Assembly: GCA_034370385.1 (NCBI GenBank) | Contig: JAXMKZ010000022.1 | Coordinates: 4,027-68,026, forward strand | Reading direction: 5' to 3' | Source of the DNA: Coriobacteriia bacterium | Lineage (GTDB): Bacteria > Actinomycetota > Coriobacteriia > Anaerosomatales > PHET01 | DNA: 64,000 nt | In this document: positions 10,226-60,345 of the stretch, one piece after another | Position numbering within the stretch: position 1 is the first letter of the stretch | Layout of the letters: the number at the start of each line of letters is the position of its first letter | Translations under genes and position numbers: made by a program | The notes under the pieces: model-generated | What the model was told of the DNA's origin: nothing | Databases searched by the model: none | The model's input: only the letters and a program-made list of their open reading frames with translations

Positions 10226-10438
10226 TCAGGACTCCGGAGCGCAGATTTCGTCGGACGGCTTCCAGCACGGAGCGTCGCGGTCCAGACAGCGGGCGCTCTC
10301 AGACGAACTCAGATGGCGCGGCGGCGTGCACTGCGCGCAGAAGAGCTGCGGCATCTTGCCCACGACGTCCTTCAAGTCCGGGTCGGCGTAGGGCGCGGGA
10401 TCCGGCATCTCGATCATGTGGAGCAGAATGCAGGGCAT
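10226..10438 (-). CDS. Small cysteine-containing hypothetical protein (6 Cys, includes CAQC)
   Basis: 70-aa ORF with a strong RBS (aaggaaggtga, 4 nt before the ATG) and consistently GC3-rich codons. No family recognised. Confidence 0.5.
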   Translation of the reverse strand: MPCILLHMIEMPDPAPYADPDLKDVVGKMPQLFCAQCTPPRHLSSSESARCLDRDAPCWKPSDEICAPES

Positions 10439-29829: not shown

Positions 29830-29905
29830 AGGGGTATGGTGTAACTGGCAACACGCCGGATTCTGGTTCCGGAGAGTCTAGGTTCGAGCCCTAGTACCCC
29901 TGCCA
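29830..29905 (+). tRNA. tRNA-Gln (anticodon CTG), CCA encoded
   Basis: Manually folded cloverleaf. Acceptor aggggta/tacccct, D arm gtgt/acac, anticodon arm ccgga-ttCTGgt-tccgg, T arm ctagg-ttcgagc-cctag, discriminator G, then CCA. Confidence 0.88.
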
Positions 29906-29910
29906 TGTAT

Positions 29911-29987
29911 GGCCCGTTCGTCTAGCGGTTTAGGACACCGCCCTCTCAAGGCGGAGATCACGGGTTCGAATCCCGTACGGGCTACCA
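29911..29987 (+). tRNA. tRNA-Glu (anticodon CTC), CCA encoded
   Basis: Manually folded cloverleaf. Acceptor ggcccgt/acgggct (G1-U72), anticodon arm ccgcc-ctCTCaa-ggcgg, T arm acggg-ttcgaat-cccgt, discriminator A, then CCA. Confidence 0.88.
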
Positions 29988-31789: not shown

Positions 31790-32142
31790 GACGGAGTGGG
31801 CCAGACGGCCGCGCGATCCCGTTTCGGGTTCGTGAGGAAAGTCGGGGCTCCACAGGGCAGGGTGCCTGCTAACGGCAGGGCGCGGCGACGCGACGGAAAG
31901 TGCCACAGAAAAGAAGACTCCCCCGCCGCAAGGCGGGAGAAAAGCTGAAACGGTGCGGTAAGAGCGCACCAGCGTCACGGCAACGTGGCGGCTTGGCAAA
32001 CCCCACCCGGAGCAAGGGCAAATAGGAGCGGCCAAGGTCGGCCCGACCGACGCTCGGGTTAGCCCGCGTGAGGCGTACGGCGACGTGCGTCCCAGATAGA
32101 TGGTCGTCCACGACAGAACCCCGCTTACCGGCCCACTCCAAG
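31790..32142 (+). ncRNA. rnpB: RNase P RNA, bacterial type A
   Basis: Contains GAGGAAAGTCGGGGCTCCACAGGGCAGGGTGCC, GAAAGTGCCACAGAAAAGA, GGTAAGAGCGCACCAG and ACAGAACCCCGCTTACCGGCC. The P1 pairing is ggagtgggcc / ggcccactcc. An extended -10 promoter (tgcTAGAAT, 31777-31785) lies ~7 nt upstream of the 5' end. Ends are approximate to +/-10 nt. Confidence 0.92.
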
Positions 32143-32153
32143 CGGGTGAGACA

Positions 32154-43133: not shown

Positions 43134-46100
43134 TCACGCTCCGGCCGTTTCGGATTCAGCTGCGGCCCACGACTCCTCTTCGGGCGCTCCGGCACCACCA
43201 AGGGACGGACCCATCGGTCCGCTCGGCACGCCCCGGCGCAGCCGTACCGGAGAGCCGCCCGGTGATCTTACGACGTAGGGCCGCACGTCTTCGGCCACAA
43301 TCGCGAGACCTCGTTCGTGATTGTTCTGCAAGGTCCCATCCACGAGGTAGGCGCGATGCTTCACTATGGCGTCGCCGGCGCGCTGAAGCGCATCCTCAAA
43401 CACCACTACGTCGAGCAAACCGGTGGCGTCCTCCAGCGTGAGAAAGCACGTTCGCTTCCCCGAGCGCGTCCGTGGGGTCTGGGCCCGCTCTCGGACTCCG
43501 GCCACGCGCACCCTCGTGCGGTCAGGTAGGCCGCGCAGGTCGCGTGCGAAGGTGACCCCACGTGCGATGAGGTCGGCCTCTGCCAAATCCAACGGGTGGC
43601 TCGTGAGAGAGAGTCCCGTGAGCTCAAGTTCGGCTGAAAGCCTGCGCGCCACGCCCCAACCGCTCACGTGGTCCGGATCCTCAGGCGGCCGGATTCGCGC
43701 CGGCGCGAGGCACAAGGTGTCGTCACCGGCGACCCCCTCGCGCGCGATAACCGCCTTGAGTTCAGGTAGGAGCGCAAGCATTTCATCGCGCGTCGGCGGC
43801 CTGCCCGCCCCGGTGGTCCCGAGCCCGTCGAGTGCCCCGATGCGGATGAGCGACTCCGCCGCCGGCAGCTCGGCACGTGTACGGCGCACAAAGTCAGCGA
43901 GGTCCCGAAAGGGCCGCACCGCGCGTTCCACCGGAACCGTTGCAAGAAGGCGAGCCGTCATCGCATGGACATCCTTCAGGCCGATACGGATGGCCGCCCC
44001 ATCCGAGGCGACCGTATGGTCGACGGCGCTGTCGTTGACGTGGGGAGCCAGAATCTCGATGCCATGGCGTCGTGCGTCGTTGACCACAAGCCGAGGCGTG
44101 TAGAAGCCCATAGGTTCGTGGTTCAGAATCGCGCAGCTGAACTCGGCCGGGTAGTACGTTTTCAGCCATGCGCTGGCGTAGGAGACCACCGCGAAGCACG
44201 CGGCATGCGCCTTGTTGAAGCCGTACGCCGCGAAACCCTCAAGCTGCCGAAAGACCTCAGCAGCCACCTCAGCATCTACCCCGCGCGCCATCGCCTTCTC
44301 CAAGAAGTGAGCGCGGATCGCCTCCATCTGTTCGCGGCTCCGTCCCTTGGTCATGGCACGACGCAACGAATCCGCCTCGGCCAGCGTGAAGCCCGCGACT
44401 TCGCGTGCAACGAGCAAGACCTGCTCCTGGTAGACGATGACGCCATACGAGTCGGCAAGTACCTCTCGCATGTTTTCATGCGGAACCGTCACCGGCTCGA
44501 TTCCATGCCGACGGCGGATGAACGGGGTGATCATCTCGGCTTCGAGTGGTCCGGGCCGAAACAGCGAGATCTGAGCGATGATGTCTTCGAAGCGGTTCGA
44601 CTTCAGCCGTGTCGACAGATTGCGTTGGCCACTGCTCTCAAGCTGGAACATCCCGACTGAGTCCGCCGCAGCGATCATCTCGTAGACACGCGGATCGTCC
44701 TTAGGCAGTTCGAACGGCTCAGGGACCGCAGCGACTCCCACACGCTCGCGTGCCATCTCGACCGCTGACGAGATGGCCGAATGCATCCGTAGACCGAGAA
44801 TGTCCATCTTCACGAGTCCGAGCGCCTCGATATCGTCTTTGTCGTACTGCGAGACGACCACCCCCTTGGCCGCCCACTGAAGCGGCATCCAGCTCGCCAC
44901 CGGGTCTCGGGTGATGATGAAGCCGCCCAGATGGGTGCCGAGGTGAGTCGGCGTGCGGTCGAGCTGTTCGGCGATCTCGAGAATGGGCGCGTAGCGCGCC
45001 TCATGCAGCGGGTGATCGCGGCACTCGGGATAGGTTTCAAGCACCTCCCTGATCTTGCGCGCGCTCACCCATGGCAGATAGCGGGAAAGCGAGTTGACCT
45101 CTGCGATTGGCAGTCCGAACGCTCGAGCCGCAATACGCACAGCGCTTCTGGCCGTGGTGGTCTGCACGGTGGCTACCATAGCGACGTGCTCGGAGCCGAA
45201 CCGCCGATAGATGAACTCGATGACCTCGTCGCGTCGCGCGGAGTCGAAGTCGACGTCGATGTCGGGCATCTGCCGGCGCTCGGGATTCAAGAAGCGCTCG
45301 AAGAGCAGGTCATGGGCGATGGGGTCCGCGTCGGTGATACCCAGAGCGAACGCGACGATGCTATCGCCTGCGCTCCCCCGTCCGCTGCAGCGGATCCTCT
45401 TCGCCTTCGCGAAGTCCACGATCTCCTTCACCACGAGGAAATACTCCGCAAACCCCATCTGGTCTATAAGCGTCAGCTCGTGCTGCAGCCTGCGAATCGC
45501 CTCCGGGATCATCGGCGAATAGCGCCGCTCCAGCCCACGCCACGACTCCTTGGCGAGCACCGAATACGCCGTCTCGCCCCTTGGCAAATCGGCTCCCGGG
45601 AAGTGGAACTGCCCGAGCGGCAGCTCGAAATCGGCACACATCGAAGCGATTTCGAGAGTCGCGTCACAGGCACGTTCGCACCCGGCGAACAGGCGGCGCA
45701 TCTCTGTGGGGGATTTGAGCCACAGTTCGGCGTTGGGCCGGTCGTAGGGTCCTGGCAGCGCCATGCGCGCACCGACGCTTGCGAGCACATCGTGGATGCG
45801 GTGGCCCTCAGGGCGCAGATAGTGGACGTCGTTCGTAGCCACCACGGGAAAGCTGAGGTCATCGGCCGCCTCGACAAGACCGCCGATGATACGGGGGCTC
45901 TCCGCGGTGAGCGGATGCACCAGCTCGACGAAGAACGCGCCGGGCTCGAAACAGTTCGCCAGGCGCATGAGTGCCGATCGAGCCCGCCCGGGGCGTGCGT
46001 GTGCCACCGAAAGCGCTGCCTCGCCGTTCCCGCAACCCGACAGGGCGATGAGCCCTTCGCCGAAGTGTTCCAGATCGCGAAGGGAGACGACGCTTGGTAC

Positions 46101-46514
46101 CTCGGGCCCACGCAGATGAGTACGGGAGAGCAACCGACACAAGTTGCGATAGCCGGCGAAATCGCGCGCGAGCACCGTCAGATGAAAACCGAACGCCGAC
46201 GCGCGACCGAATCCCACCCGTGCCGGAAGAACGAGACGCGACTCGGGCGGCAGATCGGCCTCCTCGCCAAGCACGCCGGCGGCTTCAACGACGATCTCGC
46301 AACCGATGATCGGAGCGATGCCGGCATCCCTACAGGCGCGATAGAAGCGGATGGCACCCGAAAGACCCTGATGGTCCGTGAGCGCCAGAGCGGGCATCTC
46401 GAGCTCCGCCGCACGCTCCACGAGCGCGGGTAACGGACAGGCGCCGTCGTGGAAGCTGAAGTTGGAGTGTGTATGCAGGTGCACAAAGGCCGTCGACACG
46501 GGAACCCGTCCCAC
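43134..46514 (-). CDS. dnaE2: Error-prone DNA polymerase III alpha-like subunit (DnaE2/ImuC-type)
   Basis: 1126 aa, GTG start. The N-terminal PHP domain starts FVHLHTHSNFSFHDGA, and the alpha-subunit palm/fingers are present. The length and the LexA-box-controlled operon context fit DnaE2 rather than replicative DnaE1. Confidence 0.8.
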   Translation of the reverse strand: MGRVPVSTAFVHLHTHSNFSFHDGACPLPALVERAAELEMPALALTDHQGLSGAIRFYRACRDAGIAPIIGCEIVVEAAGVLGEEADLPPESRLVLPARVGFGRASAFGFHLTVLARDFAGYRNLCRLLSRTHLRGPEVPSVVSLRDLEHFGEGLIALSGCGNGEAALSVAHARPGRARSALMRLANCFEPGAFFVELVHPLTAESPRIIGGLVEAADDLSFPVVATNDVHYLRPEGHRIHDVLASVGARMALPGPYDRPNAELWLKSPTEMRRLFAGCERACDATLEIASMCADFELPLGQFHFPGADLPRGETAYSVLAKESWRGLERRYSPMIPEAIRRLQHELTLIDQMGFAEYFLVVKEIVDFAKAKRIRCSGRGSAGDSIVAFALGITDADPIAHDLLFERFLNPERRQMPDIDVDFDSARRDEVIEFIYRRFGSEHVAMVATVQTTTARSAVRIAARAFGLPIAEVNSLSRYLPWVSARKIREVLETYPECRDHPLHEARYAPILEIAEQLDRTPTHLGTHLGGFIITRDPVASWMPLQWAAKGVVVSQYDKDDIEALGLVKMDILGLRMHSAISSAVEMARERVGVAAVPEPFELPKDDPRVYEMIAAADSVGMFQLESSGQRNLSTRLKSNRFEDIIAQISLFRPGPLEAEMITPFIRRRHGIEPVTVPHENMREVLADSYGVIVYQEQVLLVAREVAGFTLAEADSLRRAMTKGRSREQMEAIRAHFLEKAMARGVDAEVAAEVFRQLEGFAAYGFNKAHAACFAVVSYASAWLKTYYPAEFSCAILNHEPMGFYTPRLVVNDARRHGIEILAPHVNDSAVDHTVASDGAAIRIGLKDVHAMTARLLATVPVERAVRPFRDLADFVRRTRAELPAAESLIRIGALDGLGTTGAGRPPTRDEMLALLPELKAVIAREGVAGDDTLCLAPARIRPPEDPDHVSGWGVARRLSAELELTGLSLTSHPLDLAEADLIARGVTFARDLRGLPDRTRVRVAGVRERAQTPRTRSGKRTCFLTLEDATGLLDVVVFEDALQRAGDAIVKHRAYLVDGTLQNNHERGLAIVAEDVRPYVVRSPGGSPVRLRRGVPSGPMGPSLGGAGAPEEESWAAAESETAGA

Positions 46515-46958
46515 CTAGTCCTGGATGCCGATGAGCTGCCAGGTGTTCTCTGATCGGTCGAAGACCAGATCGTAGACACCGCCACGCGCGAGCACACGCC
46601 AGTAACGGCGTGAGACGTGTCGTCGCGGATCCCACCAAGCGCGCTCTGACGACCAGACCTGCAGCACGGCGTCTACGCCGAACCTCCTGGTCCCACGTAT
46701 GAATGCGAGCGGGCATCCACGCCCGGTATCCCACTCCACGACGATGTCCTCGGCCACACGTTTCGGAGCGACCGAGCCATCGCGGCGCACGAGATCGGAG
46801 GCACTGAGTATCCAGGGGCTGGCGAGCAACTCGACGATGATCGGTAGCTTCGATATTCGACCACCATCGAACAGTTCGAGTGGCTGACCTGAACGAGCAC
46901 CGTTGAAACGCTTGATTTCGGCGTTGCGACCCATTCCCACCATTCCTTGCGCAGTCAT
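46515..46958 (-). CDS. Small ImuB-C-terminal-like protein (DUF6504-like)
   Basis: 147 aa from the ATG at 46958; alternative starts at 46943 or 46934. The C-terminus PLAFIRGTRRFGVDAVLQVWSSERAWWDPRRHVSRRYWRVLARGGVYDLVFDRSENTWQLIGIQD resembles, as recalled, the ...PERI..WWD...RDYF...G..WLF.D.....W.L.G tail of ImuB proteins. Its stop TAG abuts the dnaE2 GTG. Confidence 0.6.
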   Translation of the reverse strand: MTAQGMVGMGRNAEIKRFNGARSGQPLELFDGGRISKLPIIVELLASPWILSASDLVRRDGSVAPKRVAEDIVVEWDTGRGCPLAFIRGTRRFGVDAVLQVWSSERAWWDPRRHVSRRYWRVLARGGVYDLVFDRSENTWQLIGIQD

Positions 46959-46995
46959 CGACCCCGGTTGATCGCGCGTGACGCGCCACGGTTCG

Positions 46996-47024
46996 ACTAT
47001 ACCGAACATATGTTCGGTCTACAA
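46996..47024 (-). promoter_or_regulatory. SOS promoter with embedded LexA (Cheo-type) box
   Basis: Minus strand: TTGTAG-accGAACATATGTTCgg-TATAGT, i.e. -35 and -10 hexamers separated by 17 nt. The spacer contains the perfect palindrome CGAACATATGTTCG (47003-47016). Confidence 0.8.
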
Positions 47025-47061: not shown

Positions 47062-48399
47062 TCAGTTGAGTCCGGATGGGCCTCGGCGACGCTTGGAGCG
47101 TGGGTCCTCGGCGTGCACGAACACCTTCACGCTTCCCGCGTCGAGCGCACCCAGAAGCCCTTGGACCACGCTGGCGTCGAACTGGGCGCCCGCACACCGA
47201 ACAAGTTCGGCCCGCGCCACCTCAGCCGATATTGGCGTTCGATACGGCCTCTCTGACGTCATCGCATCAAAGGCATCGGCCACCGACAGAATGCGAGCAG
47301 CCAGCGGAATCCGCTCCCCCGCCAACCCATCAGGGTACCCCCTGCCGTCCCATCGTTCGTGGTGACCCCTGACGATCGGCATGAGGCCTGCGAGGAACGG
47401 CACCGACTCGAGAATGTGCCCACCCATCTCCGAGTGCTCACTCATGACACGAAACTCATCGTCGGTCAGCTTCGCTGGCTTGAGGAGAATAGTCTCCGGG
47501 GTGCCGATCTTGCCCACATCGTGCAGAAGCGCTGCGCGCTCGACGTCAGCGACCTCTTCGTCAGAGAAGCCCATCTGGCGAGCGATCGCCACAGCGTAGT
47601 CCGTGACCGCGATCGAATGGCGCGCCGTGTAGCTGTCCTTGGCGTCAACGGCGGCCACCAGCGCCTGGAGCGTGCCCACGGAGTGAAGCTCCATGTCCTC
47701 GAGGGAATGCCGCAGTCTCCGGTTGACCTCAGAGAGGTCCCCCTGGATCGATGTCAACTCATCGGCAGTGCGCTTCACCAGGGTGAGCTGAAGGAAATAG
47801 GCCGGTACCGAACCGGCGATGATGATTCCCCAGATAAGCAGCAGGAACTGATTGATCGACTGCTCCACCGGCCGGTAGTCCTGATAGATCTCGAAGACGC
47901 CCACCGTCTCGCTGTCGACGCGCAGCGGCGCATAGACCTCGAGCACGCTACCCGCCTCTTCGAGTTGAGCTCGGTTCTCCTCGCGTTCAGCGGGTTCAAC
48001 CTCCACCACGGTCTCGCCGGCGAGTGCCTTGCGTAGCGACGGATGATCCGCAAACGATCTCCCCTCGTCCACGTTGTCCGAAGAGAAGAGGAGAACGCCG
48101 TCACGGTTCCACAGCTTGACCGCGGTCACATTCGAATCAACCAGATCCCTCGTCGTGAGGGAATCAAGTTCCGCCTGAATGCTCTCGGGCAGCGGTACGA
48201 CTGACAGATCTTGGTCTGCCACGACATGCGTGACCATGGCCCCCGCAGTCACTTGGGCGGTACGAGCAGCCGTGGTGACGAACAGCTGCTGCACCGCGTA
48301 GGTGATGGCGACTCCCAGCACCAGAGCCATCGCGACGACGAACACGAGACTGCGCAAGGCGAACTGCTGGATGAGGGTCATCTTCCTCATGGCGCACAT
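47062..48399 (-). CDS. Membrane-bound HD-GYP domain protein (putative c-di-GMP phosphodiesterase) with periplasmic sensor and HAMP-like linker
   Basis: 445 aa. Two TM segments flank a ~150-aa extracytoplasmic region. C-terminal HSIAVTDYAV...LLHDVGKIG...GHHERWDGRGYPDG. Confidence 0.85.
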   Translation of the reverse strand: MCAMRKMTLIQQFALRSLVFVVAMALVLGVAITYAVQQLFVTTAARTAQVTAGAMVTHVVADQDLSVVPLPESIQAELDSLTTRDLVDSNVTAVKLWNRDGVLLFSSDNVDEGRSFADHPSLRKALAGETVVEVEPAEREENRAQLEEAGSVLEVYAPLRVDSETVGVFEIYQDYRPVEQSINQFLLLIWGIIIAGSVPAYFLQLTLVKRTADELTSIQGDLSEVNRRLRHSLEDMELHSVGTLQALVAAVDAKDSYTARHSIAVTDYAVAIARQMGFSDEEVADVERAALLHDVGKIGTPETILLKPAKLTDDEFRVMSEHSEMGGHILESVPFLAGLMPIVRGHHERWDGRGYPDGLAGERIPLAARILSVADAFDAMTSERPYRTPISAEVARAELVRCAGAQFDASVVQGLLGALDAGSVKVFVHAEDPRSKRRRGPSGLN

Positions 48400-49034
48400 T
48401 CAACCGTGACAAGCCGCGCGACATCCGCCGAAACCGGGCGGACCTCGCCGTCGATCTCGATCGATAGGGGCCCACCGAGCGGCTCGCGCGCGATCAAGCT
48501 GACCTTGGCTCCCGGCTTGAGCCCGATCTGCCCGAGGTAGCCGAGGGTCGTCTCCTCTTCGGATACTCTCAGCACAACGGCACGATCGCCCACGGACAGA
48601 GCGTCAAGCGGCTGACCCGGCGAGTGCGAGACGCTGCCGTCCGCGGCCGGAATCGGATGTCCGTGCGGGCAGACCGACGGATCGCCAAGAAACCGCTCAA
48701 GGGCGGCCAGCACCCGGGGGGACAGTGCGTGTTCGAGCAGACAGGCTTCCTCGTGAGCGGCGTCCCAGTCCAATCCGAGCACATCGACAAGGAACCTCTC
48801 GGCCAGGCGGTGGCGGCGCACGATGTCGAGAGACTCTGCGACACCCTCCGGAGTCAACAACACCTCAGTGCCCCTGCGAAACACCAACCCGCGCGATTCG
48901 AGCCGTTTGAGCGTGGCCGTGACCGTAGGGCCCGAGACCCCGATCGCTTCAGCGATCCGACTGGGTCTGACCACGCCATCCTGAGACTGCTTGTAGATGG
49001 TCTCGAGGTACTCCTCGAGCGTGGAAGTGGGCAA
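48387..49034 (-). CDS. DtxR/IdeR/MntR family metal-dependent repressor with C-terminal FeoA/SH3-like domain
   Basis: 215 aa, TTG start after aaagga. Contains LEEYLETIYK, VSGPTVTATLKRLESRGLV, RRHRLAERFL and HALSP...CPHGHPIP. Overlaps the HD-GYP gene by 13 nt. Confidence 0.88.
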   Translation of the reverse strand: MPTSTLEEYLETIYKQSQDGVVRPSRIAEAIGVSGPTVTATLKRLESRGLVFRRGTEVLLTPEGVAESLDIVRRHRLAERFLVDVLGLDWDAAHEEACLLEHALSPRVLAALERFLGDPSVCPHGHPIPAADGSVSHSPGQPLDALSVGDRAVVLRVSEEETTLGYLGQIGLKPGAKVSLIAREPLGGPLSIEIDGEVRPVSADVARLVTVECAP

Positions 49035-49261
49035 GCGGACCGTCCTTTGGACAGGGGGGACTCAGGTACGACATCCATAATAGAGCCTTTCCCACGGCAA
49101 GTTCCATTCCTCCAACGCCCCCCTTATCGCGCGATCTCCCGCAATGCCGTTGGTACCCACATGCGTTCCGTTCGTCGCTCATTGCGAACCTTTTGTCAGC
49201 AACTGAAGAAATTCTGCGAATTACCGTTGACAGCCTGAGGCGGCGGGAATACATTACTCGT

Positions 49262-49520
49262 GTCCCGAGAAGTCGGACGCAGCAAGACTCCGGAAGATGG
49301 TGTACCAGTAGCCGCCGGAGAGGGATCTGAGGAAGGTCGGCAAGCCGCGAGGTGGCCGTTCCGGAGACAGGGCCTCGAAGGAGGGAAACCCGCAAGGGCG
49401 ATTCGCAAGAGTCGTGGGAAGCCGGTTCGAGTAGGAGACTTGTGGGCGAGGTTTCTCGGGACAACTATATTCTCAGGCTGGACCAACGAAACGGCCCCTC
49501 ATCGAGGGGCCGTTTCGTGT
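49262..49520 (+). ncRNA. Candidate structured non-coding RNA of unknown class (~260 nt)
   Basis: Near-consensus promoter TTGACA-17-TACATT (49227-49255). A closing helix gtcccgagaa (49263-72) / ttctcgggac (49453-62) and a second helix caagactcc (49283-91) / ggagacttg (49434-42). Internal tetraloop hairpins ccc-gcaa-ggg (49389-98) and cgg-caag-ccg (49338-47). A 13-bp terminator hairpin lies at 49488-49516. There is no plausible ORF and no downstream plus-strand gene. Confidence 0.45.
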
Positions 49521-49550
49521 TGCGGCGCCCGCTGATCTTCGCTGCGTGCC

Positions 49551-49922
49551 TTACGGACGGTAGACCAACTTGGCAACCGGCGACTCCCACACCGCGACCT
49601 CAGTGACGCGGACACGTGGGTCGACCATGCCCGACAGCCGCTGCCAGATCACGCGAGCAAGGTTCTCTGCGGTCGGTGATTCGGTGTCGAACGGCCCAAC
49701 CTCGTTGATCAGCACATGATCGTAGTCTGCAAGCACCGCCGCCAGATCGGCTTTGAGTCTCTTGAAGTCGTAGACGATACCGATGTCATCCAACGCTTCC
49801 CCTGAGACCGTCGCTTCGACCTCCCACGTGTGTCCGTGCAGGTTCCGGCACTCGCCCGGGTAGTCGTAGAGATGATGAGCCGCGTCGAAGTGGTCCTTCA
49901 CGGTGAGTTCGTAGGTGCCCAC
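49551..49922 (-). CDS. queD: 6-carboxy-5,6,7,8-tetrahydropterin synthase
   Basis: 123 aa with FDAAHHL and ECRNLHGHTWEVE (Cys-x3-His-x-His zinc/catalytic motif). Confidence 0.9.
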   Translation of the reverse strand: MGTYELTVKDHFDAAHHLYDYPGECRNLHGHTWEVEATVSGEALDDIGIVYDFKRLKADLAAVLADYDHVLINEVGPFDTESPTAENLARVIWQRLSGMVDPRVRVTEVAVWESPVAKLVYRP

Positions 49923-60175: not shown

Positions 60176-60190
60176 CGCTGCGATGAACCT

Positions 60191-60304
60191 TCCTTCTCCC
60201 ATCCGGACTATCACCGTCGGCTCCGGAATCTCACCGGATCGGCCCCTCTCGGGGTTCGCGGGCTGTCACCGCCGGTGGGGAATCGCACCCCGCCCTGAAG
60301 AAAG
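60191..60304 (-). promoter_or_regulatory. FMN riboswitch (RFN element) of the rib operon
   Basis: Minus-strand RNA: cttcagGGCGGGGTGCGATTCCCCACCGGCGGTGACAGCCCGCGAAccccgagaggggccGATCCGGTGAGATTCCGGAGCCGACGGTGATAGTCCGGATGGGAGAAGGA. This is a near-textbook RFN core. Confidence 0.88.
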
Positions 60305-60345
60305 CACACCGAAGTCTAGCAGGTCAGCGACGGCAACCGCCAGCG

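Follow-up and report, generated by a model that had tools for sequence, protein, structure and literature searches.

A conserved structured RNA gene between DtxR-family and queD genes of Coriobacteriia, candidate founder of a new RNA class

What occupies the gap between two protein-coding genes that both face the same way, when the gap is long enough to hold a gene of its own? The window analysed here is a 64,000-nt stretch of contig JAXMKZ010000022.1 from a Coriobacteriia bacterium, and the question arises at the 516 bp that separate an open reading frame (ORF) for a DtxR-family protein (48387-49034, minus strand; domains Fe_dep_repress, Fe_dep_repr_C and FeoA) from one for a 6-pyruvoyl-tetrahydropterin-synthase, PTPS/QueD (49551-49922, minus strand). 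An earlier note on this DNA had given the size of the gap correctly, as the ORF coordinates confirm, and had proposed a structured RNA that stands alone there, with a promoter and a terminator of its own. We find that the gap almost certainly carries a conserved, stand-alone structured non-coding RNA whose family is absent from Rfam. Conservation across a family, covariation, strand-specific scores with a covariance model (CM) and a variable gene context all bear out the proposal.

The DtxR-family protein served as the seed of a search of species-representative genomes, which gave 80 loci, mostly in metagenome-assembled genomes (MAGs) labelled Coriobacteriia, Anaerosomatales or Actinomycetota. 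Searching with the window's element, nhmmer found a homologue in about 70 of these 80 loci (E values down to 1e-51), immediately upstream of the DtxR orthologue and in divergent orientation. Our covariance model, R1 (184 positions, 41 pairs), recovered 73 copies on the genome loci at 128-177 bits, and reported the window copy at 49260-49473 on the plus strand (142 bits, E 3e-35). Over genome and metagenome copies together the sense strand scores 125-179 bits, and the antisense strand 20 bits or less throughout. A metagenome search with a degenerate DNA pattern from the 5′ part of the RNA matched at least 120 stretches; among the matches listed, R1 confirmed at least about 75 more complete copies, and about 40% of those listed were chance matches inside genes. 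Overall, homologues with compensatory changes occur in about 140 contigs.

At least 143 distinct sequences, on contigs of MAGs and metagenomes, make up the family, and the counts given below vary by set: 143 distinct sequences, 148 copies for gene context, 147 for terminators and 137 upstream regions. Length is 174-190 nt in 132 of the 143 sequences and 212-219 nt in the other 11, which include the window copy. The carriers are uncultivated Coriobacteriia/Anaerosomatales-like Actinomycetota, and the family is plentiful in metagenomes of sediments, groundwater and wetlands. Some loci have two copies within 1-3 kb of each other (L022, L036, L039, L058, L063, L085, L136, L142, L155, L158 and L162); these mostly sit on both sides of the DtxR-family gene, as inverted or tandem copies, each with its own promoter, and one type of paralogue has AGCUGC in the central region where others have AGUAGC. 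R1 found no second copy elsewhere in the 64-kb window, none in the Eremiobacterota and Gaiellales loci, and none at one Coriobacteriia MAG locus (L024) despite 692 nt of upstream flank. The DtxR orthologue at L024 is 61% identical, and that lineage may have lost or moved the RNA gene.

Two sets of candidates fell outside the family. A recurrent stretch of about 170 nt in peat-bog contigs (L084 at about 10250-10420, L145, L168, L172 and L175) has no Rfam match and is the 3′ end of a protein gene, because its conservation ends at a TAG stop codon. Three pattern matches on viral contigs, which would have pointed to a viral origin, were chance matches in coding DNA.

The modelled fold of the RNA is a single unbranched rod that runs from a closing helix through three covarying helices, set apart by small internal loops rich in purines, and a central region to a distal arm with a GNRA tip. 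Its parts in the window are as follows.

49261-49473 (plus strand): conserved RNA body in the R1 match, made up of the rod (49261-49463) and a conserved 3′ tail (49464-49473)
49261-49274 (plus strand): 5′ strand of P1, the closing helix, which pairs with 49450-49463 over 14 bp
49450-49463 (plus strand): 3′ strand of P1, GGUUUCUCGGGACA, from the pair map and covariation alignment
Between P1 and P2 (plus strand): 3 × 3 loop, from the pair map
49278-49290 with 49435-49446 (plus strand): P2/P3, covarying helices
49292-49296 opposite 49429-49433 (plus strand): internal loop of the AGUA/GAA type, GGAAG opposite GAGUA
49297-49301 with 49421-49427 (plus strand): P4, covarying
49302-49312 (plus strand): 5′ strand of the central region, GUACCAGUAGC, near-invariant and flanked by the covarying helices P4 and P6
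49385-49388 and 49415-49420 (plus strand): 3′ strand of the central region, GAAA and UGGGAA, with GAAA and GGGAA invariant
49389-49398 and 49399-49414 (plus strand): 26-nt insertion in the central 3′ strand, two GCAA-capped hairpins
49313-49316 with 49380-49383 (plus strand): P6, covarying
49320-49323 with 49373-49376 (plus strand): P7, covarying
49313-49383 (plus strand): distal arm, comprising P6, P7, a variable middle and the apical hairpin
49344-49353 (plus strand): apical hairpin with the GNRA loop GCGA at 49347-49350; the tip covaries

On the CM alignment, 92.2% of 2990 cells hold standard pairs, a figure that falls to 30-50% when the partners are slid by one to three columns. Compensatory changes on both sides occur in 25 of the 41 pairs, and double changes fill 345 cells against 111 ± 14 in shuffles; none of 500 shuffles matched any of the observed covariation measures. 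These figures share the fit of the CM alignment to the model itself. A plain MAFFT alignment gave the same helices 77.9% paired against 32-46%, with double changes in 37 of 54 pairs; a covariation scan based on MAFFT alone was noisy across the variable arm, and the CM-based alignment was used instead. The pairs of highest mutual information (106 sequences) fall within the model pairs, and the same analysis found no pseudoknot or long-range covariation beyond the rod. A pseudoknot of the 3′ tail with the internal loops was considered and rejected, as neither tail nor loops covary with other columns. Folded singly for minimum free energy (MFE), 16 diverse members mostly give unbranched rods, and the 271 nt 3′ of the window's promoter reach -117.3 kcal/mol (z = -2.9 against shuffles).

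Conservation is unevenly spread along this rod. P1 is paired in 98.6% of cells, with seven of its 14 pairs invariant and four showing compensatory changes, such as 49267/49457, where G-C is exchanged for A-U or C-G. In P4, pair 49299/49423 is GC in 56 sequences, AU in 44 and CG in 4. The central region, of about 11 × 10 nt, begins about 43 nt from the 5′ end of the RNA and is near-invariant: its family consensus is GUACCAGUAGC opposite GAAA-YGGGAA, with A45, C46, C47, G49, G52 and C53 the invariant columns in alignment A2. It holds two possible C-G pairs that never vary, so that covariation neither supports nor rejects them. The 26-nt insertion in its 3′ strand is confined to the window and its close relatives (the 11 sequences of 212-219 nt). 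The distal arm varies in sequence and keeps its length, and in its tip hairpin the closing C-G pair and the G and A that bound the loop are invariant.

The elements that the earlier note had read by eye hold up in outline. Its outer helix exists, one register away from where it was drawn, and its inner helix (49283-49291/49434-49442) equals P2/P3 of the family, with pairing at eight of the nine positions. Both tetraloop hairpins that it picked out, CCC-GCAA-GGG (49389-49398) and CGG-CAAG-CCG (49338-49347), are present, although the family model replaces the latter with GCC-GCGA-GGU at 49344-49353. The element CCGGAGA(G/C) does occur twice, at 49315 and 49361, but the duplication is incidental, because the second copy sits in the variable region. 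The terminal hairpin is also real, and spans 15 bp at 49486-49518 rather than 13 bp at 49488-49516.

Further elements that would delimit a gene lie on either side of the rod.

49147-49193 (plus strand): three upstream boxes with 21-bp phasing, CCGTT at 49147, CCGTT at 49168 and CCTTT at 49189
49210-49222 (plus strand): palindrome AATTC-TGC-GAATT (AATTCTGCGAATT), read from the sequence and abutting the -35 hexamer
49227-49255 (plus strand): promoter from a promoter scan, -35 TTGACA at 49227-49232, 17-nt spacer, -10 TACATT at 49250-49255
49486-49518 (both strands): terminal hairpin, 15 bp, G+C-rich, ΔG -29.7 kcal/mol

The promoter had been noticed before, and TTGACA-17-TACATT is indeed the sole σ70-like site in 48900-49700, where shuffles would give 0.1. 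Its counterpart accompanies the whole family: TTGNNN-N16-19-TANNNT is present in 137 of 137 distinct upstream regions, TTGAC in 122 and the 17-nt spacer in 127. Over these regions the -10 hexamer ends 4-5 nt ahead of model position 1. Transcription would therefore be expected from the first pairs of P1, which places the predicted start in the window at about 49261-49263.

Upstream of the promoter, CCGTT-like boxes peak at -80, -59 and -38 from the -35 hexamer in the 137 regions. The triple pattern has two matches in the 64-kb window, including the one at the RNA gene, with 0.22 expected, and the boxes are retained in copies without an adjoining DtxR gene. They are probably a transcription-factor array that belongs to the RNA gene. 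The palindrome at 49210-49222 is a possible operator; in 64 of the 137 family members, the 32 nt upstream of the -35 hexamer contain a TTY-N2-7-RAA element, and palindromes of the TTC-N-GAA type, some as clear as CATTTC-TCG-GAAATG, accompany about half of the family's promoters.

Downstream, the hairpin at 49486-49518 lies 32 nt past the stop codon of queD on the other strand, and its T tail is poor on either strand. It is probably a bidirectional terminator, serving the RNA on the plus strand and the convergent queD on the minus strand. In the family, strict sites of a hairpin plus T residues within 90 nt after the RNA follow 31 of 147 copies (shuffles: 3.4 ± 1.9, an enrichment of about ninefold), and start 1-9 nt beyond the conserved tail. 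The free energy of the downstream hairpin did not differ from shuffles across the family; such a plain free-energy test is uninformative because the DNA is G+C-rich.

Could the element instead serve its neighbours in cis, or be something other than an RNA gene? In cis it might be a leader or riboswitch, part of a divergent promoter of the DtxR gene, or an antisense regulator of queD. In the window, the DtxR gene is divergent upstream and queD convergent downstream. This arrangement recurs in 92 of 148 copies (with RNase H-like, zinc-ribbon and NIF3 genes past queD), a DtxR-family gene lies within about 300 bp of 116, and at some loci the queD stop codon falls just 10-40 nt past the RNA tail. 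However, no same-strand gene follows the RNA in the main context, as the earlier note had pointed out for the window in arguing that it is not a 5′ leader, and additional copies sit to one side or the other of the DtxR gene, pointing in either direction. In about 18 copies both DtxR and queD are missing from the neighbourhood, yet the RNA is retained together with its promoter and its three boxes. These copies form a recognizable sequence subgroup with a TTGCNN -35 hexamer and the start GAGAGGUCGAACCGGGCGAACCGCGAAAGG (loci L082, L094, L097, L106, L107, L118, L133, L135, L139, L141, L149, L157, L170, L176, L183, L185 and L186), and are found after gatB (L135, L185, L176 and L097), after a 5′-nucleotidase gene (L186, L170 and L082) or upstream of an MFS or DUF2779 gene. 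The lack of a same-strand gene, together with the gatB and 5′-nucleotidase placements, marks a stand-alone gene, and the variable context makes the DtxR/queD association a lineage-specific synteny rather than a sign of a leader or device of those genes. A riboswitch or 5′ leader shares the strand of the gene that it controls, lies upstream of it and has an expression platform; here queD is convergent, contexts vary and terminators directly follow many copies. This survey largely refutes a cis-acting role, which we consider very improbable.

A short protein-coding gene, repeated DNA or the remnant of a mobile element is more improbable still, to the point of being scarcely credible. An ORF does span 49260-49535, and some loci have two copies around one gene, but Pfam, at E ≤ 0.1, matches neither that ORF nor three others that cross the region. 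Insertions and deletions in the family occur in all phases, so that RNA lengths fall into all three classes modulo 3, and the 26-nt insertion is not a multiple of three. These lengths and the absence of Pfam matches lead us to regard the region as non-coding, in keeping with the earlier description of the ORF product as nonsense-like. Compensatory changes and G-U pairs are strand-specific, the RNA had no blastn match in plasmid and phage collections and no family member among its pattern matches on viral contigs, and the 64-kb window holds one copy. Taken together, the cis-acting and artefactual explanations retain very little probability.

The RNA also stands outside the known classes, as the earlier note had suspected. 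Rfam 15 was searched at the gathering score on the window and 27 homologous loci, and at E ≤ 10 on the window region, one further locus (L018) and 12 short member contigs; within that scope no relevant family matched, including 6S, Ms1, raiA and SRP. Nor did the literature on Coriobacteriia or OPB41 with 6S or 'RNA motif' yield anything that describes this RNA. The 'new class' that the earlier note listed among its candidate identities agrees with every test run.

If the RNA is new, what might it do? The pattern of conservation offers a lead. Two patches are nearly invariant, P1 with its adjoining loop and the central region, whereas the other helices covary freely, and the GNRA tip provides a third fixed point at constant distance. 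The two patches, set in a scaffold that covaries, have the look of recognition surfaces, and on this ground the RNA is rather probably a trans-acting protein binder; the pattern suggests a macromolecular partner rather than base-pairing with mRNAs. For the identity of that partner, RNA polymerase is our leading guess, tentative and taken by itself unlikely. [quoted passage not shown] The new RNA would then bind RNA polymerase as the 6S/Ms1/CoRP-type RNA of its lineage; its central region would act as a bubble like that of an open promoter, and the helices flanking this region would mimic the upstream and downstream duplex. The analogy with 6S rests on a length of about 180 nt with paired ends and an interior region about 43 nt from the 5′ end, on the tolerance of hairpin insertions in the interior 3′ strand while the rest is kept, and on a strong σA promoter with one or two paralogues in some genomes. 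We regard as evenly balanced the reading as a whole, in which 49227-49518 (plus strand) is a complete, independently transcribed non-coding RNA gene, with a core of about 213 nt here, its product acts in trans as a protein binder and RNA polymerase is the leading guess for the partner.

Several observations weigh against RNA polymerase as the partner. The Rfam models of 6S and Ms1 found nothing at E ≤ 10 on the window, the further locus and the 12 members. The central region measures only about 11 × 10 nt and has two invariant C-G pairs and AGUA/GAA-type signatures, features that would also fit a closed element of the loop-E kind instead of an open bubble. In sequence, P1 varies far less than the closing stems of 6S RNAs do. 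Inspection, the only means applied here, revealed no obvious alternative helix that a product RNA would induce, and the 3′ half is purine-rich (on the plus strand, 49200-49500 as a whole has a GC skew of about +0.2 and an AT skew of +0.2 to +0.3, from which the flanks differ). The phased boxes suggest signal-dependent rather than housekeeping expression.

An alternative is an orphan class with tertiary structure in the manner of raiA or OLE, whose function would not pass through RNA polymerase; this is a serious possibility that nonetheless stops short of being probable. Loop-E or bulged-G-type modules would stiffen and bend the rod, the GNRA tip might dock in a receptor within the molecule, a second copy or a partner RNA, and the whole could be the core of a ribonucleoprotein, a ligand sensor or a catalyst. 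Three loops bear AGUA/GAA or GUA/GAA signatures (GAAAG/GAGUA, GUA/GAA and AGUAGC/GAAAY), the tip is invariant on an arm of constant length and variable sequence, P1 and the central region are conserved beyond the needs of pairing, and no known family matches. Yet about 30% of members have C in place of the U in the central AGUA, without compensation, so that a strict bulged-G motif fits poorly, a change that also counts against the polymerase-binding model. A motif assigned from sequence is a resemblance only, nothing beyond the rod covaries, and outside one lineage no neighbouring protein gene is conserved.

A signal-controlled small RNA that acts by base-pairing is unlikely, although not to the degree of the cis-acting and artefactual explanations. 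The gene would be turned on by a factor bound to the three boxes, and single-stranded stretches of its product would pair with mRNAs, one candidate seed being the pyrimidine-rich 3′ tail ACACCUCUAU, which is partly anti-Shine-Dalgarno-like. The phased CCGTT boxes and the palindrome beside the -35 hexamer are kept in all contexts, and the conserved tail is single-stranded; however, the tail varies (CCUC, CCUG or CUUC) where pairing with a Shine-Dalgarno sequence would matter, with AACUAUAU in the window, and the invariant nucleotides lie mostly in helices and structured loops rather than in accessible seeds. Mimicry of the anti-Shine-Dalgarno sequence by a tail of the form ACACCUCUAUUCU was likewise considered and rejected: its CCUC core is not conserved, the window's tail reads AACUAUAUUCU, and the resemblance to the 3′ end of 16S ribosomal RNA, as judged from the family's sequences, is not a conserved one.

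What is in hand, whichever partner the RNA has, is a real and well-delimited structured-RNA gene whose family is in no current library; its support comes from over 140 sequences, from covariation specific to one strand and from the promoter that each copy has. Large, sequence-invariant, covarying RNAs with their own promoters are nearly always fundamental, as are RNase P, SRP, tmRNA, 6S and riboswitch aptamers. We lean towards seeing the RNA as the founding member of a new class, either the RNA-polymerase binder of its lineage or the core of a ribonucleoprotein that the boxes switch on. The family is a well-defined addition to the short list of unexplained bacterial RNAs, and makes testable the question of what fills the 6S/Ms1 niche in Actinomycetota that have neither. 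If the polymerase reading is right, the anaerobic Coriobacteriia/Anaerosomatales have arrived independently at a further solution, the third or fourth, after 6S, Ms1 and CoRP; if the alternative is right, the RNA is the core of a ribonucleoprotein whose synthesis is switched by a dedicated factor on the three boxes. The conserved three-box region offers a route to that regulator and hence to the physiological signal.

Elsewhere in the window, Rfam 15 identified ordinary RNAs: a bacterial class A RNase P RNA (31793-32143, plus strand, 283 bits), an FMN riboswitch (60187-60306, minus strand, 114 bits) and two tRNA genes (29830-29984, plus strand). Beyond the DtxR-family gene on the minus strand, an HD-GYP gene (47062-48399) overlaps the end of that gene, so that the two may form an operon. 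At 43134-47009 (minus strand), a gene for a DnaE-type polymerase III α subunit (1126 amino acids) is directly followed by a DUF6504 gene, a pair that looks like a damage-inducible mutagenesis cassette of the imuA′/imuB/dnaE2 type.

How does the new RNA compare with characterized systems? The most conserved loops of SRP RNA adjoin its GNRA tip (helix 8), whereas the new RNA is most variable beside the tip and conserved basally and centrally; an SRP-like reading of ACCAG...GGAAGC is ruled out by this architecture, and SRP gave no Rfam match. The upstream region recalls the genes of RNAIII (under AgrA) and VR-RNA (under VirR), in which short direct repeats with a phasing of about 21 bp precede the -35 hexamer. 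RNAIII and VR-RNA are multi-hairpin, base-pairing regulators of 390-510 nt under response regulators that bind direct repeats; the new gene differs in its three boxes, its consensus -35 and -10 hexamers and its rod-shaped product.

The raiA RNA (RF03072) is similar as an orphan of about 200 nt that is highly conserved, has its own transcription and occurs in Coriobacteriia, and it often has an E-loop (PMC10861870). The earlier note had listed a raiA-like RNA among its candidates, and this identity is not supported: there is no CM or Rfam match, and the fold of raiA comprises two pseudoknots and between six and eight stems (PMC10861870), whereas the new RNA is an unbranched rod in which no pseudoknot was detected.

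6S RNA (RF00013), which binds the σA/σ70 holoenzyme and templates product RNAs, is a further parallel. Both are stand-alone RNAs of about 180 nt with a strong σ70/σA-type promoter, both are rods whose 5′ and 3′ ends pair in a closing stem (in keeping with the 160-200 nt and closing stem of 6S), and each has, flanked by two helical arms, a conserved interior region that lies some 40-45 nt from the 5′ end, as well as paralogues in some genomes and gene contexts that differ among lineages. 6S has a large single-stranded central bubble between helices; the new RNA has, between the covarying P4 and P6, an 11 × 10-nt near-invariant region whose two C-G pairs covariation neither supports nor rejects and which AGUA/GAA signatures could close. 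In contrast to 6S, the new RNA has no CM match, a smaller central region that may be closed by non-canonical pairs, a near-invariant closing stem, no evident refolding helix induced by a product RNA, and phased boxes like those of a transcription factor upstream of its gene.

Ms1 and CoRP, from Actinomycetia, share other traits with it. Like them, the new RNA belongs to a phylum in which canonical 6S RNA has not been found and is a stand-alone structured RNA limited to one lineage; Ms1 and CoRP are abundant, and they too were missed by general homology models before a dedicated search (PMC9130861, PMC11077062). Sequence and CM similarity to both are lacking. Ms1 is about 300 nt long and syntenic with a HAD-IB hydrolase gene (PMC9130861), and CoRP is 516 nt long and cleaved (PMC11077062, PMC9130861), whereas the new RNA has 174-219 nt and lies beside DtxR/queD, gatB, 5′-nucleotidase, MFS or DUF2779 genes. 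Length, neighbours and the lack of an Rfam match set it apart from the Ms1 family. The earlier suggestion of a 6S/Ms1-like RNA therefore does not hold as membership in either family, and stays alive as a functional analogy, under which the RNA may be the missing 6S/Ms1-type RNA of Coriobacteriia-like Actinomycetota.

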